64,000 bases of DNA from Chitinophaga pinensis (GTDB lineage: Bacteria; Bacteroidota; Bacteroidia; 2-12-FULL-35-15), in NCBI GenBank assembly GCA_945885475.1, contig CAMCYR010000009.1, forward strand, positions 16,062 to 80,061, given 5' to 3'. The translations under genes were made by a program, and so were the position numbers. This document shows, piece by piece, positions 357-30,463 of this stretch (its first letter is position 1; every line of letters starts with the position of its first letter). Below the pieces are notes generated by a model. It saw only the letters and a list, made by a program, of their open reading frames with translations, was not told the DNA's origin and did no database searches.

Positions 357-1595
357 TTACTTGTTTTTCTCCTCTATCCATTTCGACATATACTTTGTGC
401 CTGAGATCGTATGATGCATTAACATCGCGCCTATAAAGTTTTTATGCCGGTGTTCCTGTAGATTTTCCTGAACTGATAAAATATGATCAATTAATTTTTT
501 ACCGAATTTTTCTTTAGAATAAAACTGATTGATAATCGATATTCCATTTTCCTGCGACTTCTTCCAAAGGGAAGCATCTGTATATAATTTCACTGCGGCA
601 TTTGCAATTTCAAGTGAAGTATTCGCAATTATTCCATTCCATTCAAAACTACCATGCATTCCTTCTGCTCCGATATCTGTTGTTACACTTGGTGTTCCGC
701 ATTGCATTGCTTCAACCAACTTGCCTTTTATTCCTGCGCCGAACCTTAATGGGGCCAAACAAATTTTCGCAGCACTTACTACCTGCATTGCGTCAGCTGC
801 TCTTCCTTTAATTAAAAATCCATCCTTGGGATAATTTAACTCATTCACCTTTTGTGAAGTATAGGCTCCGTAAATATGCAATTCTGCATCAGGTAATTGT
901 TTCCGGATCAAAGGCCATATTTCTTCTTTTAAATACTGGACTGCGTTCCAATTCGGCTCATGAATAAAATTACCGATGGTGATGAAGTTGGCTCTCTCTT
1001 CATACGAAGGCCATTTAATAATCGTGCCCTCGTCAATTGGGTCAATCAAAAAAGGGATATAATGAAGTAAAGCATTGTCAATTTTAAAATGATCGTTCAA
1101 CAATTTCATTTCAAAATCAGAAATGATCAGTGAACAATCGCAACGTAAAATACTGGCTATTTCCCGTTTTGCACTATCAGAAAAAAGAGCTTTTTCCGTA
1201 AACGCTCTTTTCTCTTTAAAAGCCTGCTGTCGCGCTTGACGGAGACAATGCAAATCAATCGTATCTAATATTCTTACTGCATCAGGAGCATTTTCGGCAA
1301 CTCTCCAGCCAAATTGCTCTTCGATCATAAAGCGATCAAAAATTACAATTGCAGGATTAAGCGCTGCAATAAAATCATCAAAACTTTTATTGTTTAATTC
1401 GATCTTTACCTTGCTAATTCCAAGCGTTTGAAAATCATAGGCAAATTCACTGTCGCTTGCAGCAGAAGCAAAAGTGATCTTCCAATTTTGCTTCAGAAAC
1501 AAATCGATCAACTGCAAAATCCGACTTCCCGCAGCAGATGACTTAGGTTCCGGCCAAACAGTACCGATAATTAAAACTTGATGAAAATTGATCAC
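357..1595 (-). CDS. Glycosyltransferase family 1 (GT4-like; C-terminal motif 'GAGIKGKLVEAMQCGTPSVTTDIGAEGM')
   Basis: 412-aa ORF; C-terminal GT1 nucleotide-sugar-binding motif readable in translation; start overlaps topB stop (ATGA-type overlap at 1592-1595). Confidence 0.7.
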   Translation of the reverse strand: MINFHQVLIIGTVWPEPKSSAAGSRILQLIDLFLKQNWKITFASAASDSEFAYDFQTLGISKVKIELNNKSFDDFIAALNPAIVIFDRFMIEEQFGWRVAENAPDAVRILDTIDLHCLRQARQQAFKEKRAFTEKALFSDSAKREIASILRCDCSLIISDFEMKLLNDHFKIDNALLHYIPFLIDPIDEGTIIKWPSYEERANFITIGNFIHEPNWNAVQYLKEEIWPLIRKQLPDAELHIYGAYTSQKVNELNYPKDGFLIKGRAADAMQVVSAAKICLAPLRFGAGIKGKLVEAMQCGTPSVTTDIGAEGMHGSFEWNGIIANTSLEIANAAVKLYTDASLWKKSQENGISIINQFYSKEKFGKKLIDHILSVQENLQEHRHKNFIGAMLMHHTISGTKYMSKWIEEKNK

Positions 1596-3835
1596 GAGGC
1601 ACTAAGGGTTTCAAAGGGTAAACGAAAATCACAACCTGCTTTATATTCGCTGCAACCATAAGACGTTTTTCCTTTTATAATATTTCCTTTTTTGCACTTC
1701 GGACAAATGCTCTGCTGCGTTTCAGCAACAGCCGCCTTTTTAGTTTTGGGTGCTTTTATTTGTACTTCTTCGAATTCTACATTAAAAGAATCCGTCAATT
1801 TTAAAATACCATCTTTCTTTACACCTCCAGCTGTACAACCTTTTATCACTGCCGTCCTTTTCTTTTCTAAAAGCAATTTTATTTGTGCATCACTTAATTT
1901 TTTTCCCATCAGTTCAAAAGGGATTTTCATGTCGCAGCCATTTTTATAATTGCTGCAACCGAAAGCGGTTTTGCCTTTCAACATTGTCCCCGAATTACAT
2001 TTCGGACAAACTGCTTTATCATCTTTTTCAACAACAGGTGCATGGCTAGCAATAGTGATACGCTGCGAACTTTCATTACGAACCTGTATAACCAAATCGC
2101 TTACCATCTGTTTCATTTCAGCTAAAAAAGCTTCCGCCTGATATTCTCCTTTTTCTATCTGACGTAATTTAAATTCCCAGTTACCGGTCATTTCAGCCGA
2201 CTTCAACAACTCGTTATTAATCACACGGATCAATTCCATTCCTGTGATCGTAGGAACGAGATTTTTCCGCTCGCGCTTCACATAATTTCTCCGGAACAAT
2301 GTTTCGATTATTGCCGCGCGCGTTGATGGCCGACCAATTCCATTGTCCTTCATCAACTCACGCACTTCTTCATCATCAATCTGCTTACCGGCCGTTTCCA
2401 TTGCACGCAACAATGTTGCTTCAGTATATGCCTTGGGAGCACTTGTTTTTCCTTCTGATAAAAACGCTTCATGAGAACCCGTTTCACCCGTTTCGAAAGC
2501 AGGTAACAATTGAATTTCCTCTTTCTCATCTTCATCAATCACCTCTTTATTATAAACAATCCGCCAGCCGGGATCTAAAATCTGTTTTCCAGTTGCCTTA
2601 AATTCGATTTCTTTTACTGCGCCTAAAACAGTTGTATTTGAAACTTCACAATCCGGATAAAATACAGCCAGAAAACGTTTTGAAATTGTATCGAATACTA
2701 ATGCTTCATTGCCCACTAAGCCTTGGGCTTTCATATCGGTAGGAATGATCGCGTGGTGATCTGTTACTTTTTTATCGTCAAAAACTTTCGTTGATTTCCG
2801 AATCTCACTTTCTAACAACGGTTTTACAAGTGCTTGATAATTGACCATGTTTTTTAAAACACCTGGAATCTTCGCATACATATCATTCGGTAGATACGTT
2901 GTATCTACCCGCGGATAGGTTACCAATTTTTTCTCATATAGATTTTGAATAATCTTCAATGTATCTTCAGCCGAATACCCAAAACGCTTGTTGCACTCAA
3001 CCTGCAGAGACGTAAGATCAAACAAACGCGGCGATGATTCTTTTCCTTTTTTTGTTTCAACGGTTGTAATTGTGAATTGCTCTTCTTTTATAGAAGAAAG
3101 AATGTCTTCGGCTTTTTGTTTTTCGTTCCCCTGAAATCTTTCTACTTGTGCATTAAAAACAACATCACGGTATTTTGTTTTCAATTCAAAAAAAACGGCT
3201 GATTTAAATGCGTTTATTTCCAGCTGCCTGTTAACAATCATTGCAAGCGTGGGAGTTTGCACACGCCCAATGGAAAGTACTTGTTTTCCATTTCCATATT
3301 TTATTGTAAACAAACGTGTGGCGTTCATTCCTAAAAGCCAATCTGCCGCAGCTCGGGAATAACCTGCAAAATAAAGACTTTCGTAATCTTTACCATCTTT
3401 CAGCTTCGTAAATCCTTCACGGATAGCTTCCTCTGTCAAGGATGAAATCCACAAACGTTTTAATGGTTTTTTACAGTTTGCTTTTGAAAAGATCCAACGC
3501 TGAATCAATTCTCCTTCCTGCCCAGCATCACCACAATTTATAACTTCTGATGCGTTTTCAAAAAGGGAAGCAATCGTATTGAATTGCTTTTCGATGCCTT
3601 TATCATTTTTAACTTTTATTCCGAATTTTTGTGGAAGAATAGGCAGCATATTCAAATTCCATTGGCGATAGGCAGAATCATATTCGTGCGGTTCTTTCAA
3701 TTCGCATAAATGCCCGAAACTCCATGTTACCTGATAGCCATTTCCTTCATAATAGCCATCTTTGCGCTGGTTAGCGCCCAAAATCTCAGCTATTTCTCTT
3801 GCTACACTCGGTTTCTCTGCAATACACACCTTCAT
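1592..3835 (-). CDS. topB: DNA topoisomerase III (type IA) with C-terminal C4 zinc-ribbon repeats
   Basis: 747-aa ORF; N-terminal Toprim 'MKVCIAEKPSVAREIAEILG...WSFGHL'; two C-terminal 'CPKC...GCxxYKxGC' zinc ribbons. Confidence 0.9.
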   Translation of the reverse strand: MKVCIAEKPSVAREIAEILGANQRKDGYYEGNGYQVTWSFGHLCELKEPHEYDSAYRQWNLNMLPILPQKFGIKVKNDKGIEKQFNTIASLFENASEVINCGDAGQEGELIQRWIFSKANCKKPLKRLWISSLTEEAIREGFTKLKDGKDYESLYFAGYSRAAADWLLGMNATRLFTIKYGNGKQVLSIGRVQTPTLAMIVNRQLEINAFKSAVFFELKTKYRDVVFNAQVERFQGNEKQKAEDILSSIKEEQFTITTVETKKGKESSPRLFDLTSLQVECNKRFGYSAEDTLKIIQNLYEKKLVTYPRVDTTYLPNDMYAKIPGVLKNMVNYQALVKPLLESEIRKSTKVFDDKKVTDHHAIIPTDMKAQGLVGNEALVFDTISKRFLAVFYPDCEVSNTTVLGAVKEIEFKATGKQILDPGWRIVYNKEVIDEDEKEEIQLLPAFETGETGSHEAFLSEGKTSAPKAYTEATLLRAMETAGKQIDDEEVRELMKDNGIGRPSTRAAIIETLFRRNYVKRERKNLVPTITGMELIRVINNELLKSAEMTGNWEFKLRQIEKGEYQAEAFLAEMKQMVSDLVIQVRNESSQRITIASHAPVVEKDDKAVCPKCNSGTMLKGKTAFGCSNYKNGCDMKIPFELMGKKLSDAQIKLLLEKKRTAVIKGCTAGGVKKDGILKLTDSFNVEFEEVQIKAPKTKKAAVAETQQSICPKCKKGNIIKGKTSYGCSEYKAGCDFRLPFETLSAS

Positions 3836-4029
3836 GATACCTTACCGCTGCATCCAATCCTTTAAAAAAAAGTGGGAACCAGGGATTTTTTTATTTCTTC
3901 AAAAATAGCAACTGAACGAGTTTTATGCTGAAAATGATGTAACGTTTTATCAACAACTCTTTTGGTTTAAGATTTGTTATGCTATTTTTACATCTATAAA
4001 CAACAACTAATTTAACACGTAAAATCATT

Positions 4030-4635
4030 ATGAAAAAGATACTAGTAGCATTTACATTATTATTAGTGGCGACAACAGGTTTTGCCAAAAAAGATAAAAA
4101 AGCCAAATTAGAACCAGGTATGTATGCTGAAATAACTACCAACAAAGGAGTAATACTTTTGGCACTTGAATATGTGAAAACGCCACTTACTGTTGCCAAT
4201 TTTGTTGGTTTAGCGGAAGGGAAAATAAAAAACAATTCAAAAAAAGCAGGCGTTCCCTATTACGACAGTTTAAAATTCCACCGTGTAATCCCGAACTTTA
4301 TGATTCAAGGGGGCGACCCATTAGGAAACGGAACTGGCGGACCGGGTTACAAATTCAAAGACGAGTTCCACCCTGATCTTAAACACACAGGACCAGGTAT
4401 TTTTTCAATGGCAAATGCTGGACCAGGAACAAATGGTTCTCAATTTTTTATTACACACATTGCTACACCTTGGTTAAATGAAAAACATACTGTTTTTGGT
4501 CACGTTATTAACGGCCAGGATGTTGTAAATGCGATTGTTCAAGGGGACTTGATCATTAAAGTAAAAATCATCCGAAAAGGAAAAGCAGCAAAAAAATTCA
4601 AAGCAGAAAAGGTTTTTGCAGAATTAAATAAATAG
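4030..4635 (+). CDS. Peptidyl-prolyl cis-trans isomerase, cyclophilin type, with signal peptide
   Basis: 201 aa; '[14 protein letters not shown]...[18 protein letters not shown]' cyclophilin signature; N-terminal hydrophobic signal. Confidence 0.9.
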
Positions 4636-4778
4636 GTTAGCGTTGGGGATTTTGACTCTGCTTTCATTGGTCCTATATTCTAATGCGATGGTTGGATTAT
4701 AGCAAGCTTCACCCTTTCATAAAAACATCGTAAGTAACATAAAGTTCAGTCCAGCTCATAAATATTTTTTGTAAAAAA

Positions 4779-5051
4779 ATGATAGCAACAATTGAAATAA
4801 GTATGTATTCACTCAGCGATGGTTACGAACAAAAAGTCATCGATTTCATACTCCGAATAAAAAAAAATAAAAGTATTCGCGTTGAAGTAGGCGGCTTAAG
4901 CACCATGCTTTATGGCGAGTTTAACCTATTGATGGACACAGTTAAAAATGAGATGAAAAACGATTTCGAAAATGGTAAAGCTGTATTTCTCATGAAAATT
5001 GCAGGAACTGAATTAACAAAAGAAAAATTACCCGAATCATTAAAATCATAA
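4779..5051 (+). CDS. YkoF/MTH1187-family (DUF77) thiamine-binding-like small protein
   Basis: 90 aa; 'IEISMYSLSDGYEQKVIDFI...VEVGGLSTMLYGEF...' resembles MTH1187/YkoF fold family. Confidence 0.55.
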   Translation: MIATIEISMYSLSDGYEQKVIDFILRIKKNKSIRVEVGGLSTMLYGEFNLLMDTVKNEMKNDFENGKAVFLMKIAGTELTKEKLPESLKS

Positions 5052-5055
5052 TGTC

Positions 5056-5622
5056 ATGAAAAAAATAATTTTAACCATTATCGCAATTGCATGCATTACA
5101 ATGGCATTCAGTCCAAAAGCTAGTGTTGTTGGGACACTTTTTCCGGGAATGGAATGTGAAGATTATAACGGGAAAGCGGTGAATCTGCCTGTCGATACAA
5201 AAGGCAAATACTCATTACTTTGTATTGCGTTCAGCACTGCTGCAGAGCCCGATCTTAAAACATGGATCAATCCTATATACAATAAATTTATCGGCAAAGT
5301 GGATGCTTCAAAAGCGGATGTTTTTGATATTCATGTAGATTATGATGTAAACTTATATTTTATTCCGATGTTCACAGGATTCAATAAACTAGCAAGTAAC
5401 GCTTCAAAGGATAAAATAAAATCAAAAACGGACAAAGAACTTTATCCGTATCTGTTATTTTATGATGGGGGAAAGGCCTACAAAGAAGAGTTGGATTTCA
5501 AAAAACGTGATATTCCCTACTTTTTTGTTTTAGATAAAACTGGAAAAGTTATATATACCACTTCCGGGAAATACGATGATTCTAAGTTAGAAAAGATAGT
5601 TGATATTTTTGAGGAAAACTAA
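5056..5622 (+). CDS. Hypothetical lipoprotein, possibly thioredoxin-like fold without CxxC
   Basis: 188 aa with signal/lipobox-like N-terminus; C-terminal 'PYFFVLDKTGKVIYTTSGKYD' resembles redoxin/TlpA beta-strand pattern but no CxxC. Confidence 0.45.
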   Translation: MKKIILTIIAIACITMAFSPKASVVGTLFPGMECEDYNGKAVNLPVDTKGKYSLLCIAFSTAAEPDLKTWINPIYNKFIGKVDASKADVFDIHVDYDVNLYFIPMFTGFNKLASNASKDKIKSKTDKELYPYLLFYDGGKAYKEELDFKKRDIPYFFVLDKTGKVIYTTSGKYDDSKLEKIVDIFEEN

Positions 5623-5706
5623 ATTTAAGTACTTTCCTTTTTTACAACAGTAGTTTTTTACTAGATTTCATTATCTTTACTTAAGGATTAATAAGATTAA
5701 ATACAG

Positions 5707-8700
5707 ATGAAAAAACTACTCCTTTTTCCGACACTTATACTGTCCCATTTTATGAGTAATGCAATTGAGGTAATCGAAAATCCCTTTGCAAAATCATTCG
5801 AAAAAGCCTATTCAGTCCACCCTGAAATTTCCAGAGGAATGCTTGAAGCGGTTGCATTTTGTAATACACGATTCACGCATATCACACACCGCGCTATTGA
5901 ATCAGAAAGCTGCGCAGGAATTCCAAACGCATATGGTGTAATGGGTCTAACCTTAGACGGCAAAAACTACTTCAACAATAACCTTATTACGGTTTCTGAA
6001 CTTTCGTTGATCAGCACGAATGAAGTGATCAACGTTCCAGAAAAAAACATTCTTGCTTTCGCTGATGCTTATGCAAAAGTGAAAATAATGCTTAATATCA
6101 GCAGCAATAAAGCAGCGGATCAATTAACTATTTTAAACTACTTGAGCGAGTTGCCAAGAGAAACTACCGGGCAAATTTATGCACTGGCGAGTCAAGAATT
6201 CGGATATGTTCAGTTTTTAATGAACGTTGATTATCAGCATCAGTATAATTTTCCTGATCATCAATTAGATCCCGAGAAAATATTCGGAAAGGACAACTAT
6301 GCTATTTTAAGCTCTTCATCAGTTATCGTTACAGATGAAAAAGTATACAATAAAAGTGGACAAACATTTCAGAGATCTGCTCTATCATCAGATTATGCTC
6401 CCGCCATTTGGAATGCAGCAGCTTCCTGTAATTTTAGTTCAAGAAGTAGTACAGCAGTTTCTGCGGTGACAATCCATACCGTTCAAGGTACGTATGCAGG
6501 ATGCATTTCATGGTTTCAGAATTGCGCTGCAAGTGTTTCCGCGCATTATGTTGCACGTTCAAGTGACGGGCAGATCACGCAAATGGTTTTAGAATCCATG
6601 AAAGCATGGCATGTTGGTTCTCATAATCCATACACAATCGGAATTGAGCATGAAGGATACATTAGTTCGGCATCCTGGTATACAAATGCAATGTATAATG
6701 GATCAGCTTCTTTGGTGAGAGATATTTGCATAAGTGGATACGGGATTAATCCCTTGAGATGTTATTATGGCTCTGGCTGTTCCGGTGGAGCATCCACTTG
6801 CGGGATAGGCTCTTGTACAACGATCAAAGGCCATCAAATGTTCAGCGCACAAACACATACGGATCCTGGACCATTTTGGAATTGGGCAAAATATTATTTA
6901 CTGATTAATAACAGTCCTGTAATTTCAACAATCACTACTGCAGCTGGAAACTATTATGACAGTGGCGGATCTACCGGAAACTATTCTAATGACGAGCGTT
7001 TGCTAAGACTTATCCAACCAGCGGGAGCAACATCAATCACTTTAAATTTCACAGCATTCAATACAGAATTAAACTGGGATTATTTATTTATATATGATGG
7101 CGCAACCACCGCTGCGCCACTGATCGGACAATATACGGGAACGTCATCTCCCGGCAGTGTTACTTCAAGCAGCGGCTCTTTACTTTTAGAGTTTCGTTCT
7201 GATTGTGCAACTGTTTCTTCAGGTTGGGCAGCTAACTGGACAAGCACTTCAGGTTTTGCGACAACAGCAGACAGCATTGCTCCTACTACAAGTGTGTCAA
7301 CAAGCGGTGTATGGGAAACTTCAAATTTTGTGGCCAACTTTACTGATGCAGATAATGCAGGTGGAAGCGGCTTAGAAAAAAGTTACTACCAAGTAATTGA
7401 TTTCAACGGAACAGAATGGAGAGCAAATAATAACAATGGTTTTTTTGCCGACAATTTTGATGATGCGATTCATCCTGATTGGACAACAGCAGTTGGAACT
7501 TTTAGCATCAATGCGGGATCACTTTATCAAAGCGATGAAGCAAATGGAAATACAAATATCTATGCTGCTTTGAATCAAAGTTTATCGGATAGGTCTTTGT
7601 TCAATTTCTACGGTAAAATAGATGGAGCAGGTATTTCCAGAAGAGCAGGTTTTCATTTCTTCTCTGATAACGGCAGTCTTACAAACAGAGGGAATTCCTA
7701 TTTTGTTTGGTTCAGAGTGGATGATGGATTTCTACAGATCTATAAAGTAGCCGGTGATGTTTTTGGATCACCGGTTGTTAACGTTCCGTTTATTACAATT
7801 GCCGGACAATGGTACGACTACAAAGTAATTCATGATCATATTACTGGAAAGATCACGATATACAGAGACAATCAATTTGTAACGTCTTGGACCGACCCAT
7901 CTCCGTTAGCTACAATCGGAAATTCAATTTCTTTTCGCACAGGAAATGCAAATTTCGCGATCAACGAATTAAAGATATATCGTTCTAGAAATCCTTCATC
8001 TGCAAATATAACAGCAGGTGCTGCTAGCACGAATGATATCCGTTTTCAAAATCCGAATCCGACAACGTTTTCAGCCAAAGTAAAATCAATTTGTGCAGAT
8101 ACTGCAGGAAATCTTTCTGCAATTTTTTATCAGAATATCAATGTCGATTGGACAGCACCAAGCGCTGTTGATACACTCAACGACGGAACAGGAGCTGACA
8201 TCGCGATCACAACCTCCGCAACAGATCTTTCAGCAAACTGGAGTATTTCCGATGATCCCCATTCTGCAATCGCCCATTACTGGTATGCGGTAGGAACAAG
8301 TCCGGGTGCAACAGATGTTATGAACTGGACCGACAATTGGTATAGCGACAGTGTTACTGTTTCAGGATTAAGTTTAGTGAACTTACAAACATATTATTTC
8401 AGTGTAAAGGCGGAAGACGGAGCGGGATTAATTTCTGAGGTTGTGAGTAGTAACGGACAAATGGTTCAGCTAATAGCTACAGGAACGGAAGATCAGTCAG
8501 CAAATTCCGAAATAACGATTTCCCCGAATCCATTCTCCAATAATTCAATCATTACGTATTCTTTATCCAAGAATTCTAATGTAGAAATTATCCTGAATGA
8601 TGTTTTAGGAAAAGAAATACACTTATTCAATGCAGGTCAAACTGCAGGTAAACATGAGCTCACAATCAATGCTACTGAAATGAAATTATCAAAAGGGATG

Positions 8701-8760
8701 TATTTTATAAAAATCAGAACAGATAATTCGCAAAAAACAATTAAGGTCATCATTAAATAA
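5707..8760 (+). CDS. T9SS-secreted multidomain N-acetylmuramoyl-L-alanine amidase (amidase_2/PGRP-like) with CUB-like, lectin/LamG-like and FN3-like domains and type-A Por C-terminal sorting domain
   Basis: 1017 aa; amidase_2 motifs 'AWHVGSHNPYTIGIEHEG' and 'HTDPGPFWNW' (approx nt 6415-6900); CUB-like 'LNFTAFNTELNWDYLFIYDG...'; C-terminal 'ISPNPFSNNS...GMYFIKIRTD...IKVIIK' Por_Secre_tail (nt ~8515-8757). Confidence 0.8.
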   Translation: MKKLLLFPTLILSHFMSNAIEVIENPFAKSFEKAYSVHPEISRGMLEAVAFCNTRFTHITHRAIESESCAGIPNAYGVMGLTLDGKNYFNNNLITVSELSLISTNEVINVPEKNILAFADAYAKVKIMLNISSNKAADQLTILNYLSELPRETTGQIYALASQEFGYVQFLMNVDYQHQYNFPDHQLDPEKIFGKDNYAILSSSSVIVTDEKVYNKSGQTFQRSALSSDYAPAIWNAAASCNFSSRSSTAVSAVTIHTVQGTYAGCISWFQNCAASVSAHYVARSSDGQITQMVLESMKAWHVGSHNPYTIGIEHEGYISSASWYTNAMYNGSASLVRDICISGYGINPLRCYYGSGCSGGASTCGIGSCTTIKGHQMFSAQTHTDPGPFWNWAKYYLLINNSPVISTITTAAGNYYDSGGSTGNYSNDERLLRLIQPAGATSITLNFTAFNTELNWDYLFIYDGATTAAPLIGQYTGTSSPGSVTSSSGSLLLEFRSDCATVSSGWAANWTSTSGFATTADSIAPTTSVSTSGVWETSNFVANFTDADNAGGSGLEKSYYQVIDFNGTEWRANNNNGFFADNFDDAIHPDWTTAVGTFSINAGSLYQSDEANGNTNIYAALNQSLSDRSLFNFYGKIDGAGISRRAGFHFFSDNGSLTNRGNSYFVWFRVDDGFLQIYKVAGDVFGSPVVNVPFITIAGQWYDYKVIHDHITGKITIYRDNQFVTSWTDPSPLATIGNSISFRTGNANFAINELKIYRSRNPSSANITAGAASTNDIRFQNPNPTTFSAKVKSICADTAGNLSAIFYQNINVDWTAPSAVDTLNDGTGADIAITTSATDLSANWSISDDPHSAIAHYWYAVGTSPGATDVMNWTDNWYSDSVTVSGLSLVNLQTYYFSVKAEDGAGLISEVVSSNGQMVQLIATGTEDQSANSEITISPNPFSNNSIITYSLSKNSNVEIILNDVLGKEIHLFNAGQTAGKHELTINATEMKLSKGMYFIKIRTDNSQKTIKVIIK

Positions 8761-8761
8761 G

Positions 8762-8795
8762 GTGAACAGAATAATTCTATTCACATCATTTTATT
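8762..8795 (+). terminator. Candidate rho-independent terminator after amidase gene
   Basis: Imperfect inverted repeat gtgaacagaat/attctattcac immediately after stop codon followed by T-rich tract. Confidence 0.35.
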
Positions 8796-9379
8796 CAGCA
8801 TATACTTTTGGTAAGCCGGAGAAACTATAGACTTACGTTATGCTTTTATCTCAACTGGTAATCACCACTATTTAAATTTCACTTGAGGAAAAAAAGCATT
8901 CAAAAAAAATCTATTCATTAGGAAGAGGCAGAAAAATACGCGAAGTATAATTGCTCATCTAACGAACAATCTGAAAATTTACAAACTTTTGAGACCAGCA
9001 TCCCAAAATCCAATCAAAAAAGAAGTGCATGAAGAGCATACAATTTAAATAAAAAAGTTTTTGGCTGGTAACATTGCTGAATTACCGTATTGGAATTAAA
9101 GTAGGATTGGACAGAAATAACGGCTAAGTGTTATTTTTTTTATAAAATATATTCATCAAACGTAAATCCCATCAGTAGCTATGTTTATAGGAGTAAAAAA
9201 AATCTTATTAATATTAAAACTTAAAGCTATTGCCTAGTATTCATTACAGATAGGCTAAAGCATTTTATGTTATAATTTCTACAAAATGATATCATTCACA
9301 TAGAAATAAATTCAGGTTACCAAGCAAAAAAGATTACAAAGATTGTTATTTTGCTTAAATTTGATTTAAAATTAAAAAA

Positions 9380-10792
9380 ATGAAGGAATCAAAATACAAG
9401 CATCTTAAAGCAACAGAAACAGATGCTTTTTTGATTGGCGCAGGGATAATGAGTAGCACGCTAGCAACACTTCTTATTGAACTCTTTCCGGAATGGAAAA
9501 TTCAAATCAGTGAACGTAGAAATAGTGCCGCGGAAGAAAGCTCATCAAGTCTTAATAATGCAGGAACAGGACATTCAGGGTATTGTGAATTAAATTACAC
9601 GCCCGAAGATGCACATGGCAACATTGATATATCCAAAGCAATCGCGGTTCATAAAGCGTTTTCTAAATCGATTGAGTTTTGGCAATATTTAATTGAAGCG
9701 GGAAAAATCAATAGTGATATACATACAATCACAAAACACATCAGCTTTGTAAGCGGAGAAAAAAATGTAGATTATTTGTTTAGAAGATGGGAAGCAATGA
9801 CAAAATCTGATGCGTTTGAGGATTTAGAATATTTTTCTAAAAACGAAGATCTTTTAAAAATAATCCCGTTAATGATGGAAGGAAGAGATATCAATTCTCC
9901 ATGTGCAATAACTGTTCACGATGGTTATGATATTGATTATGGTAAAATAACAAAGTATTTAATTCAAAATCTCCACGAACATAATGTCGATATTAACAAA
10001 AATCATGAAGTTATTGATTTATACAAAATAGGCAACAAATGGCAGGTTATCCAAAAAAACTTAGTTACTAATGAAATAAGTAAAATTGAAGCTAAATTTG
10101 TTTTTATTGGTGCAGGCGGCGCCGCTATTACGTTATTAGAGAAATCAGAAATTCCTGAAGCTAGCGGTTATGCCGGTTTTCCTGTTTCTGGTGAGTGGTT
10201 AATATGCGAAAATCAACAGGTTGTCGAAAAACATTTTTCTAAAGTTTATGGCAGGCCAAGTGTGGGATCTCCTCCTATGTCAACGCCACATTTGGACTTA
10301 CGAACAATTAACGGAAAGCACTGCTTACTTTTTGGTCCGTATGCAGGTATGTCAACAAAATTTTTAAAATACGGTAATTGGACAGATTTTTTTAAGTCGA
10401 TTAGAATAAATAATATTGGTGTGTTACTTGATGCAGGTGCTCGTAATTTAGGATTAACAAAATATTTAATAAAAGAACTTTTTAAAACAAAAGCAGGAAG
10501 GTTTAACGTTTTGAAAGAATATTACCCAAATGCAAATCAAAAAGATTGGAAAAGATCTGTAGCTGGTCAAAGAGTGCAAGTTATAAAAAGAGTTAATGGG
10601 AAAGGTGTGATTGAATTTGGTACTGAATTAGTTACGGCCAAAGATGGAAGTTTAGCTTGTTTGCTGGGCGCAAGTCCGGGAGCAGCTACATCAGTAAAAG
10701 TAATGCTTGATGTGATAGAAACTTGTTTTAATATGAATGATGCTACTAAAGAAAAATTATCTAAAATGATTCCAACGTATGGCAAAAAATAA
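9380..10792 (+). CDS. mqo: Malate:quinone oxidoreductase (FAD-dependent)
   Basis: 470 aa; N-terminal 'FLIGAGIMSSTLATLL...SSSLNNAGTGHSGYCELNYT' typical of Mqo. Confidence 0.9.
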   Translation: MKESKYKHLKATETDAFLIGAGIMSSTLATLLIELFPEWKIQISERRNSAAEESSSSLNNAGTGHSGYCELNYTPEDAHGNIDISKAIAVHKAFSKSIEFWQYLIEAGKINSDIHTITKHISFVSGEKNVDYLFRRWEAMTKSDAFEDLEYFSKNEDLLKIIPLMMEGRDINSPCAITVHDGYDIDYGKITKYLIQNLHEHNVDINKNHEVIDLYKIGNKWQVIQKNLVTNEISKIEAKFVFIGAGGAAITLLEKSEIPEASGYAGFPVSGEWLICENQQVVEKHFSKVYGRPSVGSPPMSTPHLDLRTINGKHCLLFGPYAGMSTKFLKYGNWTDFFKSIRINNIGVLLDAGARNLGLTKYLIKELFKTKAGRFNVLKEYYPNANQKDWKRSVAGQRVQVIKRVNGKGVIEFGTELVTAKDGSLACLLGASPGAATSVKVMLDVIETCFNMNDATKEKLSKMIPTYGKK

Positions 10793-12861: not shown

Positions 12862-13659
12862 TTACCTCTTTTTCTTCTTAGGCTTCTCTTTTACAGCTTC
12901 TTCTTCGTATTTCAAGATACCACCCCAATAGCTCATTTGAGTTGTAATCCAAGCTCTACGTTTTTGAATGTATCCACTTGGATTTCCTGCGTTGAACCGA
13001 ATTGGATTGGGCAAAACAGCAGCAATTGTAGCCGCCTCTGATTTACTTAAATAACGTGCATCCTTTTTAAAAAATGTTTTCGATGCCGCCTGCGCACCAT
13101 AGATACCATCGCCCATTTCAATCACATTCAGATACACCTCCATGATTCGTTCTTTACTCCACAATGTTTCAATCAGAAATGTAAAGTATACCTCAAAACC
13201 TTTACGAACGTAGCTTCTACCCTGCCAAAGAAAAACATTTTTTGCTGTCTGCTGACTTATTGTACTTGCCCCACGTGTTTTTTTATGTGTTTCGTTATAA
13301 TCCATTGCTTTTTGAATAGCCTCAAAATCGAAACCATTGTGCTTGATAAAATTCTGATCTTCAGAACAAACAACAGCTAACTGAAGACTGGAAGCAATTT
13401 CATCAAGAGGCACCCACTCTTTTTTCAGTTTCATCTCTTTGCCATCCATTTTTTGTTCTATACAACGTATGAGCATAAGAGGCGTAATAGGCACTGGAAC
13501 CCAACGAAATAAAATAACGGAAAGAATAGTAATAATGAAAAACCACACTGTAGCTTTCCAAGTATAACGCCAAATTTTTTTTAGAAATTCTTTCACCTTA
13601 AAAATCAAAATCGAATTTAGGACAATCGGCTGCACCATTCGGTCTATCATACCCTTCAC
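12862..13659 (-). CDS. mtgA: Monofunctional biosynthetic peptidoglycan transglycosylase
   Basis: 265 aa; GT51 motifs 'STISQQTAKNVFLW...RKGFEVYFTFLIETLWSKERIMEVYLN'; 5' end overlaps PorP/SprF 3' end (true start probably an internal Met). Confidence 0.85.
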   Translation of the reverse strand: MKGMIDRMVQPIVLNSILIFKVKEFLKKIWRYTWKATVWFFIITILSVILFRWVPVPITPLMLIRCIEQKMDGKEMKLKKEWVPLDEIASSLQLAVVCSEDQNFIKHNGFDFEAIQKAMDYNETHKKTRGASTISQQTAKNVFLWQGRSYVRKGFEVYFTFLIETLWSKERIMEVYLNVIEMGDGIYGAQAASKTFFKKDARYLSKSEAATIAAVLPNPIRFNAGNPSGYIQKRRAWITTQMSYWGGILKYEEEAVKEKPKKKKR

Positions 13660-14575
13660 TGCTCATGACAGGCGACATACCCATCATAAATTCGGTAGAG
13701 TTTGCATTAGCAGAGCGGAAACGCGATATCGTATAATCATATGCAAAACCGACAAGTACATTTTTAAAAACACGAATTTGTATCATTCCGGAGATTGCAT
13801 CATGCATTCGGTATGAAAGCCCAAGTCCGATTCGTTGACGAAAGTAGGTCATAAAATTAAATTGCGCAGAAGGAATACCTATAAAATTAGATTGGATATT
13901 TACACCCGGAACAAAAACATAATCATAACCTTCCGATTTAAACTTTTTAGAAGCGCTGAATACTGCAGTAGGAAGCAATCTTCCTGGTGTTCCGATTTTA
14001 TTACTCGCCTGCTTTAATGAGTTTTTATAGATGTTACGTAAAGATAATCCAACAGCTATTTTTTTTGAATATAAATAAATTCCCGGAATAAAATCTGGCA
14101 ACAAAACCTGCGGACTAATTTGAGACAAAGCGGGATCGGTAGCATTAAAAACAGAATTTGTCAAAGCAACACTTTTGATGCCGGCAGCAATCCCGACACT
14201 GAAATAATATTTAGCTGACAATTTTAAATGAATTGCGTAAGAACCATATGCAGCCTGGTTTGTAAAAACACCGAATTTATCCTGCTCGACATAAGCTCCT
14301 ATTCCATGCCAATAATATTTGAATCCCTTTTTACCAAATGCTTTGGTCACACTTGCAAAATTAGTTTCAGGAGCAAATGCAAAACCACGCCACTGCGATC
14401 TTCTACCCACCATTACATATAATCCTTTGCCGCTTCCGGCGACAGCAGGATTTAATCCGTAATCGTTCATCATGAATTGAGTATACTGAACAGCCTGTTG
14501 AGCATATACTGAAACAGAAAACAATAAAAGTATGACGACTATTTTAATTTTTATCATTTTATAATTGATACGCAT
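13598..14575 (-). CDS. PorP/SprF-family type IX secretion system outer-membrane protein
   Basis: 325 aa; signal peptide then 'QQAVQYTQFMMNDYGLNPAVAG' hallmark N-terminus of PorP/SprF family; predicted beta-barrel; start probably at Met7 giving 4-nt overlap with upstream gene. Confidence 0.85.
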   Translation of the reverse strand: MRINYKMIKIKIVVILLLFSVSVYAQQAVQYTQFMMNDYGLNPAVAGSGKGLYVMVGRRSQWRGFAFAPETNFASVTKAFGKKGFKYYWHGIGAYVEQDKFGVFTNQAAYGSYAIHLKLSAKYYFSVGIAAGIKSVALTNSVFNATDPALSQISPQVLLPDFIPGIYLYSKKIAVGLSLRNIYKNSLKQASNKIGTPGRLLPTAVFSASKKFKSEGYDYVFVPGVNIQSNFIGIPSAQFNFMTYFRQRIGLGLSYRMHDAISGMIQIRVFKNVLVGFAYDYTISRFRSANANSTEFMMGMSPVMSSEGYDRPNGAADCPKFDFDF

Positions 14576-15120
14576 CCTTTAATAATTGTTCCTTCATCCG
14601 ACTGATTATGATAAATTACATAATAGTAACTTGCGACAGGCAATGGAACACCAAATAGATCTTTTCCATCCCACAGTTCATATAGTCCTTTTTTTTCGAA
14701 TACTTTTTGCCCTAGACGATTGTAAACAAGAAAGCATGCATCAGAAAAATATTCCGAGTTTTGTATTGTCCAGGAATCATTTATTAAGTCAGCGTTCGGC
14801 GTAAATACAAATTCAGGAGCCATTTCACAAACAATCAACTTTACTTCAATTACAACTGTTGTACTGTCCCCACTTCCATCCCTAATAACAACCGAATATA
14901 CTCCTTCATTAATATCATGAAGGAAGGAAGTGGTGTCTGAAGTACTCCATAAAAAAGTATAAGGTGTATTCGTGGATGTAACTACCACTTCCACATCACC
15001 ATATTCCTTATGATTACATTTAACATCTTTTTTAATGATATTAAATGTAATTTGTGAAAAAGAGACTCCACAAAAAAGAAGTAATAGAAAAGTTGCACTA
15101 ATTTTTTTCATCAGTTGCAC
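14554..15120 (-). CDS. Small T9SS type-B C-terminal-domain protein (gliding-motility-associated CTD) with one Ig-like domain
   Basis: 188 aa; signal peptide; C-terminal 'FTPNADLINDSWTIQN...YNRLGQKVFEKKGLYELWDGKD...YYYVIY' matches type-B CTD; immediately upstream of PorP/SprF as in SprB-SprF pairs. Confidence 0.75.
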   Translation of the reverse strand: MQLMKKISATFLLLLFCGVSFSQITFNIIKKDVKCNHKEYGDVEVVVTSTNTPYTFLWSTSDTTSFLHDINEGVYSVVIRDGSGDSTTVVIEVKLIVCEMAPEFVFTPNADLINDSWTIQNSEYFSDACFLVYNRLGQKVFEKKGLYELWDGKDLFGVPLPVASYYYVIYHNQSDEGTIIKGCVSIIK

Positions 15121-15836
15121 AATTTAGTAACAAGTTCATCTGCCATAATACTTCCCTTCTCAGCAGCCGTTTTCAAAAGTTCACAGGCAGATACTTTTTC
15201 ACCATGCTGATACATTGTAGTAGCTAAACCTATGTAGGCTTCACGGTAAGAAGGATCTAACTCAATAACTTTTTTATAGTCCGCAACCGATCCCGAATAA
15301 TCGCCAGCAATATCTTTCCAGAAAGCACGGCTGTAATAAGCATTTGTATACCTCTCATCAATGGAAATGGATTTATCGAGATCTTGGATTGCGGAGGAAT
15401 AATCATCTAAATGCGCTTTGGCTAATGCCCTGTTAAAATAAGGTTTTGGCTTCAGTGGATTTAATTCGATGGCTTTATTAAAATCCTTGATCGCAGCAAT
15501 GTAATCTTTTAATTGTGCTTTTACTATTCCCCTACCGTTGAGTGCATCCAGGTATTCAGGGTTTAATTTGATCGCTTTATCCAATAATTTGATCGCCAAT
15601 TTATTTTCACCCATTTTATAATTAATAAACCCCTGCAGACAAAAAGCACTATCATAGTATGGGTTTTGGTTTATTGCGTTATCAAGGTCGTGAAGTGCGG
15701 CAGAATAATCTTTCTGCGAATCGTTGATCAATGCACTTTTATAAAACTCATAAGCCGAGTTTTGTGAAAATGAAATAACAGAATTAACCAGAAATAAAAA
15801 CAGAAAAACGCTAACTGCAATAATATGTTTCATCAT
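15111..15836 (-). CDS. Secreted tetratricopeptide-repeat protein
   Basis: 241 aa; signal peptide; ~6 TPR units (repeated 'A...Y..A...L..A..LNP'). Confidence 0.8.
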   Translation of the reverse strand: MMKHIIAVSVFLFLFLVNSVISFSQNSAYEFYKSALINDSQKDYSAALHDLDNAINQNPYYDSAFCLQGFINYKMGENKLAIKLLDKAIKLNPEYLDALNGRGIVKAQLKDYIAAIKDFNKAIELNPLKPKPYFNRALAKAHLDDYSSAIQDLDKSISIDERYTNAYYSRAFWKDIAGDYSGSVADYKKVIELDPSYREAYIGLATTMYQHGEKVSACELLKTAAEKGSIMADELVTKLCN

Positions 15837-16585: not shown

Positions 16586-19500
16586 ATGATAAAAATTAAA
16601 AAATATACTCTGAGTGTTTTGCTAATTATAATTTTAGCAACTAGTTACTCGCAGAGTTTCAATTTTAAAAATTACAATACAAAGTCTGGTCTGATAGGAA
16701 CAAATGTAAACGGAATCTACCAAGATAGCAAAGGTTATATATGGTTCGCCGTTCAAGGAGGACTAAGCCGCTTCGATGGAAGCCAGTTTCGTAACTTCAC
16801 AAAGGAAAACGGATTAATCGGAAATGATGTTACTAGCATAGTTGGTGATAAAAGAGGGAATATTTGGATTGGAACAACAGAAGGTATTTCAAAATATGAT
16901 GGTGTTTCATTTAAAAATTATTCTACAAAAAATGGCTTAGTAGATAATTTCATCCGGAATGTCTTCATCGACAATAATGATCAACTGTGGGTGGCCACAG
17001 ACAATGGAGGTGTTTCAAAACTAAACAAGGAAACTTTTGAAAACTTTACAATAGCTACAGGCCTTTTGACAAATACTGTTTTTGCTATAACGCAGGATAA
17101 AAAAGGTAATTATTGGTTTGCAACAAATAGTGGGATATGCAAATACAACGGAAATGAAATCATCAACTTCCTCAATCAAAAGAACATTTCAGGAAAAGAA
17201 TTTTTTTCAATACTTATCGATTCAGAAGGGAGCATATTCTTTGCAGGTGAAATAGGAGATGGTTTTATAAAATATTCGAATGGGAAATTTGAAAAAAAAT
17301 CATTCCCTGAATATTTACCTAAAAATAGTCGAATCTTCAGCATGATGGAAGATAAACATGGAAGTATCTGGTTTTCCTCTGATAATGATGGAATTATAAA
17401 ATATGATAAAAAAGATTTTTACACTTACAACGAAAAAAACGGACTTTCTTCCAATCAAGTCTATGCGATAAAAGACGACTACGAAGGCAACATTTGGATT
17501 GGGACAACCAATGGAGGTGCAGATAAGTTAAATAACGAATCGTTTGCCGCTTTCACTGAAAAAGATGGACTATCTGCTAATAAAATAGCTAGCGTTTATA
17601 AAAACAAGGATGCTCTTTTTATTGGAACACAAGGCACAGGACTAAATATTTTTACAAAGGGCTTTTATAATTTCAAACAAGAAATAAAAGAATTAAAAAA
17701 TGAAAAAATATTTTCAATTGCCGAAAATAAGAAAAACGAAATATGGATTGGTACGGAAAAATCCGGGATTTATGTATTGGAAAAGAAAGAAAATAATTAT
17801 TCTATAAAAAAACATATACCAATACTTCTTAATAAATCATTAGGGCTCGTTGATAAAATAATTTTCGATAAAAATGGTAATACTTGGATTTCTACCTATG
17901 GCAATGGTGCATTTTTAATTACTATTTCAGGAGAAATTAAAAACTATTCTACAGAAACAGATTTCCCTTCTAATAATTTATTAACGATACATGAGGATAA
18001 AAAGGGAAATATTTGGTTCGGTTCAATTGATGTTGGAGCTATAAAATATGATGGAAAGAAGTTCATTATCATCAATGAGAAATTGGGCTTATCAAACAAT
18101 GCTGTATGGTCAATCACCGAAGACGAAAATGACAATATATTTTTAGGAACAGGAGAGGGCGGTATTAATTGTGTAAATGGAAAAAACATTACAAAAATTG
18201 ACCGATCTGATGGACTTTGCTCAAACTTTATAGCGACATTGAATTGGGATAGTTTCGAAAAGGTAATTTGGGTTGGAACGAACAATGGAATCAACAAATT
18301 AAAACTTGGTTCAAATTTAAAACCTCTTTCGATACAGTATTATTCTGAAGAAGAAGGATTTAAAGGAACGGAAGTAACATCCTGTTCCCAAGATAAAGAT
18401 GGACTAGTTTGGTTTGCTACGATAAATGGAGTTTACCGCTATGATAGAAAATTTGATCTGCCAAATAAGTCAGCTCCAAAACTTGTTCTGACAGAAATAT
18501 TACTAGACTATAAGAATGTTGATTGGAAGAATTACTGTGACTCTGTTGATATAAGAACTAATATTCCAAAATCGCTTGTACTTGCCTATAATAAAAAACA
18601 CTTAACATTTAATTTCAGAGCCTTAACGACAGACAATGTTAAATACACATTTATTTTACTTGGGCAAGATTCAGAATGGTCACCTCTGAGTTCATTATCT
18701 GAAGCAAATTTCTCAAACATTATCCCGGGAAGATCCTACCAGTTCAAGTTGAGAGCAGTTAATTCAAATGGTATTTGGAGTGATGAAATTGTATCATTTG
18801 AATTTAAAATAAATTCACCTTGGTGGCAAACGTGGTGGTTCATTTCAATAAGCATTCTGCTTGGAATGTCAAGTATATATATTTTCGTAAAACTTCGAAC
18901 AAACAAACTAGCAAAGGAAAAAAAGGTGCTAGAAAAAAATGTTGCTGAAAGAACCTTTGAATTATCGGTAGCATTAAAAGAAATCAATGATAGCATTAAT
19001 TACGCTAAAATAATTCAACACTCCATACTTCCACTATCTGATGAAATCCATTTGGATTTACCTCAATCGTTTGTTTACTATGAACCTAAAAATGTAGTGA
19101 GTGGCGACTTTTACTGGTTTCATAAAAAAAATAAAAAGCTATACTTTGCAGTAGCAGATTGTACGGGACATGGTGTACCAGGAGCATTTATGAGTATGAT
19201 TGGTAGTTCATTATTAAACGAAATATTTAATGAAAATAACAATCCAGATGCCGCTGAGATTCTTAATTTATTGCATTCCAGAGTAAGAAAGGTATTAAAA
19301 CAAGATCGGTACGATGTAAAATCACAAGATGGGATGGATATTTCACTAGTTATTATTGATAATGAGGAAATGAAATTGAATTATGCAGGAGCCAAAAGAC
19401 CTCTTTATTTATTCAGAAAAGAAGATTATGGATATCAATTTATTGAAGCTAAAGCTGATAAGCAATCGATAGGTGGACATCAAAATGAAAATGATTTCAA

Positions 19501-19747
19501 ATTCGCGAACCATTTTTTTTCTCTCCATAAAGGAGATAGTCTATACATGTTCACAGATGGCTATGTTGATCAATTTGGGGGAGGAAATGAAAAAAAATTC
19601 TCTACTAAAAGGTTGAAAGAAACTCTAGAAAGCATGCAGCAATTGGAAATGGATAAACAATCTTCGGAATTATCATCAGTCATCAGTGATTGGAAAGGAA
19701 CCAATGAACAAGTAGATGACATATTAATCATAGGAATTAAAATATAA
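16586..19747 (+). CDS. Sensor protein: two-component-regulator beta-propeller repeats + Y_Y_Y domain + TM helix + PP2C/SpoIIE-type serine phosphatase
   Basis: 1053 aa; >12 'GLxxNxVxxIxxDxxGxxWxGT' propeller repeats; single TM 'WWFISISILLGMSSIYIFV'; C-terminal 'SGDFYWF...FAVADCTGHGVPGAFMSMIG...DGYVDQFGG' PP2C phosphatase motifs. Confidence 0.85.
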   Translation: MIKIKKYTLSVLLIIILATSYSQSFNFKNYNTKSGLIGTNVNGIYQDSKGYIWFAVQGGLSRFDGSQFRNFTKENGLIGNDVTSIVGDKRGNIWIGTTEGISKYDGVSFKNYSTKNGLVDNFIRNVFIDNNDQLWVATDNGGVSKLNKETFENFTIATGLLTNTVFAITQDKKGNYWFATNSGICKYNGNEIINFLNQKNISGKEFFSILIDSEGSIFFAGEIGDGFIKYSNGKFEKKSFPEYLPKNSRIFSMMEDKHGSIWFSSDNDGIIKYDKKDFYTYNEKNGLSSNQVYAIKDDYEGNIWIGTTNGGADKLNNESFAAFTEKDGLSANKIASVYKNKDALFIGTQGTGLNIFTKGFYNFKQEIKELKNEKIFSIAENKKNEIWIGTEKSGIYVLEKKENNYSIKKHIPILLNKSLGLVDKIIFDKNGNTWISTYGNGAFLITISGEIKNYSTETDFPSNNLLTIHEDKKGNIWFGSIDVGAIKYDGKKFIIINEKLGLSNNAVWSITEDENDNIFLGTGEGGINCVNGKNITKIDRSDGLCSNFIATLNWDSFEKVIWVGTNNGINKLKLGSNLKPLSIQYYSEEEGFKGTEVTSCSQDKDGLVWFATINGVYRYDRKFDLPNKSAPKLVLTEILLDYKNVDWKNYCDSVDIRTNIPKSLVLAYNKKHLTFNFRALTTDNVKYTFILLGQDSEWSPLSSLSEANFSNIIPGRSYQFKLRAVNSNGIWSDEIVSFEFKINSPWWQTWWFISISILLGMSSIYIFVKLRTNKLAKEKKVLEKNVAERTFELSVALKEINDSINYAKIIQHSILPLSDEIHLDLPQSFVYYEPKNVVSGDFYWFHKKNKKLYFAVADCTGHGVPGAFMSMIGSSLLNEIFNENNNPDAAEILNLLHSRVRKVLKQDRYDVKSQDGMDISLVIIDNEEMKLNYAGAKRPLYLFRKEDYGYQFIEAKADKQSIGGHQNENDFKFANHFFSLHKGDSLYMFTDGYVDQFGGGNEKKFSTKRLKETLESMQQLEMDKQSSELSSVISDWKGTNEQVDDILIIGIKI

Positions 19748-23044: not shown

Positions 23045-23073
23045 AAAGCTTATAAATTAAAAACGACAACTAT

Positions 23074-30405: not shown

Positions 30406-30463
30406 TTTATAATTATAGAAACTAATTGATTACTAATTAAAGTTGTAAAAAGAAAATAGTTAA

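Follow-up and report, generated by a model that had tools for sequence, protein, structure and literature searches.

AmpD, an amidase of 183 aa, is a recycling enzyme of the cytoplasm; the small amidase AmpDh2 is a lipoprotein of the envelope. The secreted glycan-degrading enzymes of Bacteroidota are well studied and include Flavobacterium johnsoniae ChiA, a chitinase secreted by its type IX secretion system (T9SS); a murein-active enzyme of family GH18 is known from Bacillus (SleL). Amidases, sometimes joined to a glycan-cleaving domain, that act on foreign or external murein include Staphylococcus aureus Atl (amidase and glucosaminidase), the TseP protein (amidase and lysozyme) of a type VI secretion system (T6SS), and Lysobacter capsici Ami (PMC7679415, PMC11893102, PMC12219114). 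These enzymes share their logic with the protein reported here, but they belong to other amidase families or routes (T6SS, Sec, vesicles) and have no T9SS C-terminal sorting domain (CTD), CUB domain, or lectin cassette. Here we describe a gene from a 64,000-nt stretch of Chitinophaga pinensis DNA (contig CAMCYR010000009.1 of assembly GCA_945885475.1, positions 16,062 to 80,061; hereafter the window) that encodes a modular 1017-aa protein with an AmpD-type amidase domain and a T9SS sorting domain. Our preferred reading, held with moderate confidence, is that this protein is an extracellular zinc amidase that acts on foreign peptidoglycan, mainly harvesting cell-wall material as food. Modular murein hydrolases that are secreted are already known, and so is T9SS cargo; no characterised T9SS-exported Amidase_2 enzyme was found in the searchable literature as a precedent for the family, and a preprint on ixotrophy mentions peptidoglycan in other contexts only. 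The gene and the parts of its product are as follows.

5707–8760, + strand: gene for the predicted T9SS-cargo peptidoglycan amidase, 1017 aa, stop codon included (open reading frame (ORF) list and domain matches)
5707–5763, + strand: putative Sec signal peptide, aa 1–19 MKKLLLFPTLILSHFMSNA, followed by IE (judged from the sequence)
5764–6390, + strand: N-terminal helical domain, aa 20–228, without family annotation (AlphaFold2 (AF2) model and Foldseek)
6415–6921, + strand: Amidase_2 catalytic domain of the AmpD type, aa 237–405 (Pfam PF01510)
6928–7254, + strand: CUB domain, aa 408–516 (Pfam PF00431)
7255–8001, + strand: Ig-like sandwich and ConA-like lectin module, aa 517–765 (AF2 and Foldseek)
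8002–8511, + strand: FN3/Ig-like beta-sandwich region, aa 766–935 (all-beta model, FN3 tandem matches)
8518–8757, + strand: type-A T9SS CTD, aa 938–1017 (PF18962, TIGR04183)

The Amidase_2 profile (PF01510) matched aa 249–389 over model positions 3–131 of 131 (E = 1.3e-22; 81 bits against a cut-off of 26), and a PDB search with the family profile returned AmpD (E = 8.9e-9) and AmpDh2 (E = 0.016) as the nearest solved relatives; T7 lysozyme and the peptidoglycan recognition proteins (PGRPs) gave no PDB match even with this profile at E ≤ 0.1. By residue counts along the HMMER alignment, E314, H376, and D386 correspond to AmpD E116, H154, and D164; in AmpD, E116 is the catalytic Glu, and H154 and D164 belong to the three zinc ligands. 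Inside the Pfam match, the only invariant His is H257 (motif TIH, first strand), which is probably equivalent to AmpD H34 and sits three columns off it in the MAFFT alignment. We propose H257, H376, and D386 as the zinc ligands and E314 as the catalytic Glu, i.e., the same His, His, Asp zinc site, with the catalytic Glu in an IGIE motif, as in AmpD, AmpDh2, and AmpDh3 of Citrobacter, E. coli, and Pseudomonas. These four residues are invariant in the 24-sequence family alignment as well as in 69 of 69 orthologues found in the genomes of other species, with identities as low as 38%; an earlier note on this DNA, made by a model from the sequence, had named loss of the zinc ligands as a possible refutation of its amidase prediction. 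With a profile match above the curated cut-off and a complete metal and catalytic site, the N-acetylmuramoyl-L-alanine amidase domain proposed in that note stands, and we predict that the protein is a zinc-dependent N-acetylmuramoyl-L-alanine amidase of the AmpD type with an intact catalytic site. The note's label “PGRP/amidase_2-type” was right for Amidase_2; “PGRP-type” is a looser fit than “AmpD-type”, since T7 lysozyme and the animal PGRPs, which belong to the same Pfam family and fold class, have Cys as the third zinc ligand where this protein has Asp, and neither was matched in the PDB.

Two features set the catalytic domain apart from AmpD. The position of AmpD K162 (T7 lysozyme K128), which is not Pfam-defining, is occupied by His384 in every member aligned, both in the HMMER alignment with AmpD and in the family alignment. 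In addition, a Cys-rich insert of ~22 aa relative to E. coli AmpD contains C341, C358, C365, and C370, all four of which are conserved, which suits an oxidising compartment and folding outside the cytoplasm. As a whole, the protein further differs from AmpD and AmpDh2 in its length, its T9SS tail, its N-terminal domain, and its ~530 aa of binding modules.

Both ends of the protein carry export signals. The putative Sec signal peptide, read by eye, shows KK in the n-region, a hydrophobic core, and SNA as its cleavage motif, and homologues share a conserved N-terminus; the CTD (aa 938–1017) scored 38.4 bits against PF18962 (Por_Secre_tail; cut-off 27) and 45.1 bits against TIGR04183 (cut-off 23). 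The type-A T9SS sorting signal of the earlier note is thus confirmed at the sequence level, and, as the note had predicted, the amidase is most likely exported to the cell surface or the medium via the T9SS. Because a type-A CTD directs cargo past the outer membrane, an extracellular role, which the note had preferred over periplasmic housekeeping, is also the best reading here. T9SS-secreted glycan hydrolases such as ChiA are likewise polymer degraders exported through the T9SS by a C-terminal signal; ChiA differs in acting on chitin and in carrying a CTD type other than the type-A domain of the amidase. Besides the amidase, the window encodes a T9SS component and four other CTD proteins (one CHU_C-tailed and three SprB/PKD proteins with type-A tails), which points to T9SS parts and further cargo in this organism.

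13598–14575, − strand: PorP/SprF T9SS membrane protein (PF11751, E = 2.2e-54)

Between the catalytic domain and the CTD lies a cassette of CUB, lectin-like, and FN3-like modules, three labels of the earlier note that hold (CUB by Pfam, lectin and FN3 by predicted structure). The CUB profile (PF00431) matched aa 423–510 (E = 2.1e-11; 44.6 bits against a cut-off of 21.4), with PDB matches to cubilin (E = 2.7e-19) and neuropilins (E ~1e-13). For aa 517–938 no Pfam match was found in the window protein; an AF2 model of this region (pLDDT 80) has a ConA-like core flanked by FN3/Ig sandwiches. In Foldseek the lectin core (aa ~593–761) matched CBM66 (TM 0.76–0.80, normalised to CBM66; E = 5e-7 to 6e-8), with further matches to the L-type lectins Emp46/47, the SraP L-lectin, legume lectins, and galectin-like folds. 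The FN3 region has a precomputed PF00041 match in one homologue (P0085).

A search of 1.84 billion cluster representatives with aa 517–765 gave 403 matches, in which the module occurs at many positions in proteins of 332–2662 aa. A Pfam scan of 42 of these 403 proteins, in which PF06439 was touched in four, found the following domains alongside the lectin module: Por_Secre_tail (29/42), Amidase_2 (25/42), CUB (18/42), PKD (16/42), Peptidase_C39_2 (3/42), and GH25, GH18, and Peptidase_M23 (1/42 each); most of the fusions to cell-wall hydrolases have a T9SS tail. Because the module rides with amidases, a muramidase (GH25), an M23 endopeptidase, and a GH18 enzyme, it is most simply explained as a cell-wall-targeting module, and the lectin cassette looks like a device for targeting cell-wall glycan. 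The cassette also occurs in other settings. At one locus (L013:711–3248), a T9SS protein has Amidase_3 joined to a galactose-binding-like domain (GBD_T9SS_assoc) and to this lectin/FN3 cassette. Its gene lies directly upstream of the Amidase_2 orthologue in that genome, such that two unrelated amidase folds share one targeting tail. Longer relatives of 1300–2660 aa include proteins that carry PKD domains (P0061, P0067–P0069, and P0074) as well as P0361–P0375, which, like P0067, are among these longer forms; many lectin-module matches come in two or three stretches, showing that the cassette has been duplicated and shuffled.

The N-terminal domain of ~210 aa, absent from the description in the earlier note, is helical in an AF2 model of aa 20–228 (pLDDT 85.6, pTM 0.83). 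In a Foldseek search of the PDB, the top 25 matches were all MltF, MltC, MltE, Slt, or GH19 (probability up to 0.96, E ≥ 0.14, TM ~0.37), and in BFVD, a library of predicted viral structures, the best matches were SLT/LT_GEWL phage proteins (probability 0.98, TM 0.42–0.48); across both libraries the fold matches, muramidases included, are weak (E 0.14–1, TM 0.33–0.48). Family-1 lytic transglycosylases (Slt70, MltC, MltE, MltF, and phage LT_GEWL proteins) are the sole recurrent structural neighbours of the domain. Glu47 is invariant in 69 of 69 orthologues, and the domain contains the motifs GVMGL (77–81) and PEKNI (111–115). In the best hhalign paths, themselves non-significant, AYGVMGL falls on AIGLMQL of MltE, and PEKNI falls on PERNI of MltE and PETNI of Slt70; the spacing from the invariant Glu to G-x-M-G-L is ~30 residues here, as compared to 15 in Slt70 and MltE. 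Membership in the SLT family by sequence was rejected: neither the window protein nor 15 family members had a Pfam match in this domain at E ≤ 10, no PHROG match was obtained, the family profile found nothing relevant in the PDB, and hhalign comparisons with E. coli MltE, the Slt70 C-domain, and a profile of five lytic transglycosylases were not significant (P values of 0.16, 0.2, and 0.077), which leaves the fold as evidence. We do not file the domain as an SLT family member; it probably has a lysozyme-like fold and is possibly a second catalytic head.

Relatives of the amidase are numerous. The protein search returned more than 2868 of them, the best 120 being almost all of the same length (~1015–1030 aa) and domain set, and a relative is present in at least 587 species representatives; averaged along the whole protein, column identity in the 24-sequence alignment is 66%. 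The family carries automatic names only in the databases, and we regard it as uncharacterised yet widespread, its members being predicted secreted peptidoglycan hydrolases.

Ten sequences that had grouped with the amidase by virtue of their common cassette lacked the catalytic residues and represent a second gene, directly downstream. This gene encodes a protein with GH18, CUB, lectin, FN3, and CTD parts and lies 0–700 nt after the amidase gene in 15 loci (L001–L004, L006, L007, L009–L012, L014, L016, L033, L071, and L073) and also in L087 and L088. Its C-terminal ~600 residues are ~51% identical to the amidase tail; the GH18 partner thus has the same tail and cassette as the amidase. Neither this partner nor its decayed remnant in the window had been mentioned in the earlier note. 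In the window, residues 42–161 of the GH18 protein of L004 align by tblastn to 8871–9215 (28% identity, E = 1.6e-9), within an AT-rich gap of 620 nt (8761–9379) that follows the amidase gene; the aligned frame has five stop codons, indicating a pseudogene scar, and no intact GH18 gene or second copy of the cassette was found in the window. The features on this side of the amidase gene are as follows.

8762–8784, no strand assigned: palindromic hairpin followed by a T-rich stretch, directly 3′ of the amidase stop (terminator scan); probably the terminator of the amidase transcript
8871–9215, + strand: decayed 5′ part of a GH18-CUB-lectin-FN3-CTD gene (tblastn; five stop codons)
9380–10792, strand not given: mqo, after the amidase gene and the gap

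In L087 the amidase orthologue (7703–10207) is shorter, at 834 aa: the N-terminal domain and the amidase are retained, CUB is present twice, and the lectin module is missing. The neighbouring GH18 gene, with a start that overlaps the stop of the amidase gene, carries the complete cassette. No family-wide operon partner was found among the loci; beyond the closest clade the neighbours vary from lineage to lineage and include an ABC transporter, a small beta-barrel-like protein, and a nucleoside phosphorylase with a MeaB-like GTPase.

Together these features allow a mechanism to be proposed. The protein would cross the inner membrane via Sec and fold in the periplasm, where the T9SS would recognise the type-A CTD and move the protein over the outer membrane, to be released or tethered to the surface. 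The CUB, ConA-like lectin, and FN3 cassette would then anchor the enzyme on cell-wall glycan, the AmpD-type domain would cut the stem peptide from MurNAc, and the lysozyme-like N-terminal domain may cleave the glycan strand too; in related genomes, the enzyme would act beside the GH18 glycosidase that has the same cassette. Because the producer's own murein lies behind its own outer membrane, the substrate would be foreign, with exposed Gram-positive walls, damaged cells, and shed sacculi as likely targets. The purpose would most likely be food harvest, with the lysis of susceptible neighbours as a side effect; conservation of the kind seen in orthologues, the absence of a general immunity-type neighbour, and the pairing with GH18 favour feeding over a dedicated weapon. 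A further proposal, which we put forward tentatively and consider rather less probable than the reading above, is that a large uncultured clade of Bacteroidota has a “murein-harvesting” toolkit of amidase, GH18, and cassette (the latter also on GH25, M23, and Amidase_3), in which the N-terminal domain would be a new family of active lysozyme-like domains that cleave the glycan strand, making the amidase a two-headed hydrolase, and the lectin would be a new peptidoglycan-binding module.

Several observations weigh against an extracellular enzyme that harvests foreign murein. Lys162 is catalytically important in AmpD and T7 lysozyme, and with His384 in its place the chemistry or the substrate could differ. 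CBM66, the best structural match of the lectin module, binds a different ligand, a fructan, and the link of the N-terminal domain to lytic transglycosylases consists of weak structure matches (E ≥ 0.14, TM 0.37–0.48) and fails every sequence test. The GH18 partner has decayed in this genome, so that the amidase–GH18 pair is not obligatory. The window, at 64 kb, holds one T9SS component, the core components PorK/L/M/N, SprA/Sov, and PorU/V not being within it, and T9SS cargo folds in the periplasm, so that the producer would be exposed to self-damage in transit. Finally, the best 80 relatives all come from metagenome-assembled genomes of uncultured Bacteroidota.

The matter of self-damage leads to the two small genes upstream of the amidase gene, which the earlier note had suggested could be accessory or protective factors. 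All three ORFs are on the same strand, and the ORF list agrees with the note on their coordinates and on the spacers of 4 nt (p90 to p188) and 84 nt (p188 to amidase).

4779–5051, + strand: p90, an ORF of 90 aa without a signal peptide, predicted UPF0045/DUF77 protein (YqgV/MTH1187-like)
5056–5622, + strand: p188, an ORF of 188 aa, predicted periplasmic thioredoxin-fold protein (ATP10/Redoxin-like) without CxxC

By itself, p90 scored below threshold against PF01910 (14.9 bits against a cut-off of 24.9; E = 0.025). The profile of its 21-sequence family matched the DUF77 structures 2ibo (E = 6.6e-5), 1yqh (E = 4.2e-4), MJ1052, and MTH1187 and had no match to the YkoF family itself; eight of 120 homologues have a precomputed PF01910 match, and many are named YqgV by JGI. 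Therefore, the note's label “YkoF-like” is right at the superfamily level, but not for YkoF itself; p90 appears to be a divergent relative of UPF0045/DUF77 (YqgV/MTH1187, PF01910). The thioredoxin-fold matches of p188 (Redoxin, ATP10, and AhpC/TSA) likewise all fell below the curated cut-offs (scores of 22.8 against 26.6, 19.9 against 22.3, and 17.5 against 26), and its family profile matched Bcp (E = 0.016) and a thioredoxin-like protein (E = 0.02) in the PDB. The protein has three Cys, and CxxC is absent in 120 of 120 homologues; “Cys-less thioredoxin-like”, as it had been called, thus fits with regard to the likely fold and the missing CxxC, but not literally. A thioredoxin fold is likely and a redox function unlikely. 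The note had also called p188 a lipoprotein, which we ruled out: the lipobox-like Cys13 is present in only two of 120 homologues, and p188 is therefore taken to be a periplasmic protein processed by signal peptidase I.

Synteny was assessed in a sample of 80 loci from other species, 73 of which have at least 1 kb upstream of the amidase gene; p188 adjoins the amidase gene in two of these 73 loci (L001 and L006) and p90 in one (L001). L086 has the block of topA, cyclophilin, p90, and p188 in intact form and lacks an amidase within 7 kb of it, and the two families are small (130 database matches for p90 and 387 for p188, as compared to more than 2868 for the amidase). On these three observations we rejected p90 and p188 as accessory or immunity factors of the amidase; the two genes are its neighbours by lineage accident, their steady companions being cyclophilin and topA. 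The earlier note's overall interpretation thus stands with regard to the amidase and its export, and fails with regard to the upstream genes. The block of topA (−), a cyclophilin peptidyl-prolyl isomerase (+), p90 (+), and p188 (+), at 1592–5622 of the window, is a unit conserved among related genomes that occurs with or without the amidase (L001, L086, and L087); there is no apparent reason that would link a cytoplasmic DUF77 protein such as p90 with a periplasmic, CxxC-less protein such as p188.

These results bear directly on the rival explanation that survives best, a dedicated weapon, i.e., a bacteriolysin that kills live competitors or prey, comparable to secreted Lysobacter amidases and T6SS amidase effectors, with p188 as an immunity factor in transit. 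The catalytic and export features suit a weapon as well as they suit feeding, the structure matches allow for a second lytic domain, and p188, with its signal peptide, lies 84 nt upstream of the amidase gene with no terminator found between the two by the terminator scan; dual amidase-lysozyme effectors and secreted bacteriolytic amidases are known (PMC11893102, PMC12219114). However, p188 is adjacent to the amidase in so few loci, and it occurs with topA, cyclophilin, and p90 where there is no amidase; no other neighbour is conserved family-wide, and the family is conserved like an orthologue rather than polymorphic like a toxin. In addition, it is established that the murein of intact Gram-negative cells is out of reach for a free enzyme. 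We therefore consider a dedicated weapon unlikely, if still the strongest of the alternatives.

A housekeeping or self-directed enzyme, i.e., an AmpDh2-like amidase with a T9SS tail that trims released muropeptides, remodels the surface, or separates cells, is improbable. The closest solved relatives, AmpD and the envelope-associated AmpDh2, and what appears to be about one copy per genome across hundreds of species would fit such a role; the type-A CTD, however, takes cargo across the outer membrane and away from the murein of the producer itself, and ~530 aa of modules of the carbohydrate-binding and adhesion type are not needed for periplasmic recycling. Moreover, the cassette is common to secreted GH25, M23, and GH18 enzymes, and the neighbourhood contains no division or recycling genes. 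The last alternative, a surface adhesin in which the amidase domain is a PGRP-like recognition module, or a hydrolase of some other amide-linked glycoconjugate, we regard as no likelier, since none of the three metal ligands varies, nor does the catalytic Glu (PGRPs without catalytic activity have usually lost one of the zinc ligands), and the cassette is found joined to four or five further classes of genuine cell-wall hydrolases, against which stand His384 in all members, CUB, lectin, and FN3 modules typical of adhesins, and SprB-type adhesins encoded by neighbouring genes.

Additional observations were made in the window. The T9SS/gliding-related genes lie at 13598–15836 (−) and 19802–32926 (+) and encode PorP/SprF, a CHU_C-tailed 188-aa protein, a TPR protein, and large SprB-repeat/PKD proteins of 1080, 2443, and 820 aa. 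Adjoining the adhesin genes, 16586–19747 (+) encodes a 1053-aa protein with Reg_prop beta-propeller repeats, Y_Y_Y, and a C-terminal SpoIIE (PP2C-type) phosphatase, an unusual sensor-phosphatase arrangement. An mtgA-like transglycosylase ORF (12862–13659, −) overlaps the PorP/SprF ORF (−) by 62 nt; the GTG start listed for the mtgA-like ORF probably lies too far upstream. G+C content is 0.40–0.42 in the amidase gene (window 6001–8500), as compared to 0.30–0.35 in the flanks, and this excess could come from a composition rich in Gly, Ser, Thr, and Ala or from a different history. An Rfam scan of the whole window gave no structured RNA matches, and sigma-70-type promoter sites numbered 21, as compared to 20.0 ± 4.1 in shuffled sequence, with a tool that does not include Bacteroidota promoters.

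Our results also suggest caution with regard to gene-neighbour reasoning, as what looks like a cluster of three genes arose by accident in a single lineage, and the amidase's real partner is here a pseudogene scar. In water and soil, peptidoglycan makes up a large stock of organic carbon and nitrogen, and the main polymer degraders in these habitats are Bacteroidota. Present in hundreds of uncultured species, the family described here is a defined candidate for how Bacteroidota attack bacterial cell walls; it also offers what may be a lysozyme-like domain of a new kind, together with a module that recurs in many proteins, may direct them to cell walls, and could serve again in engineered lysins.

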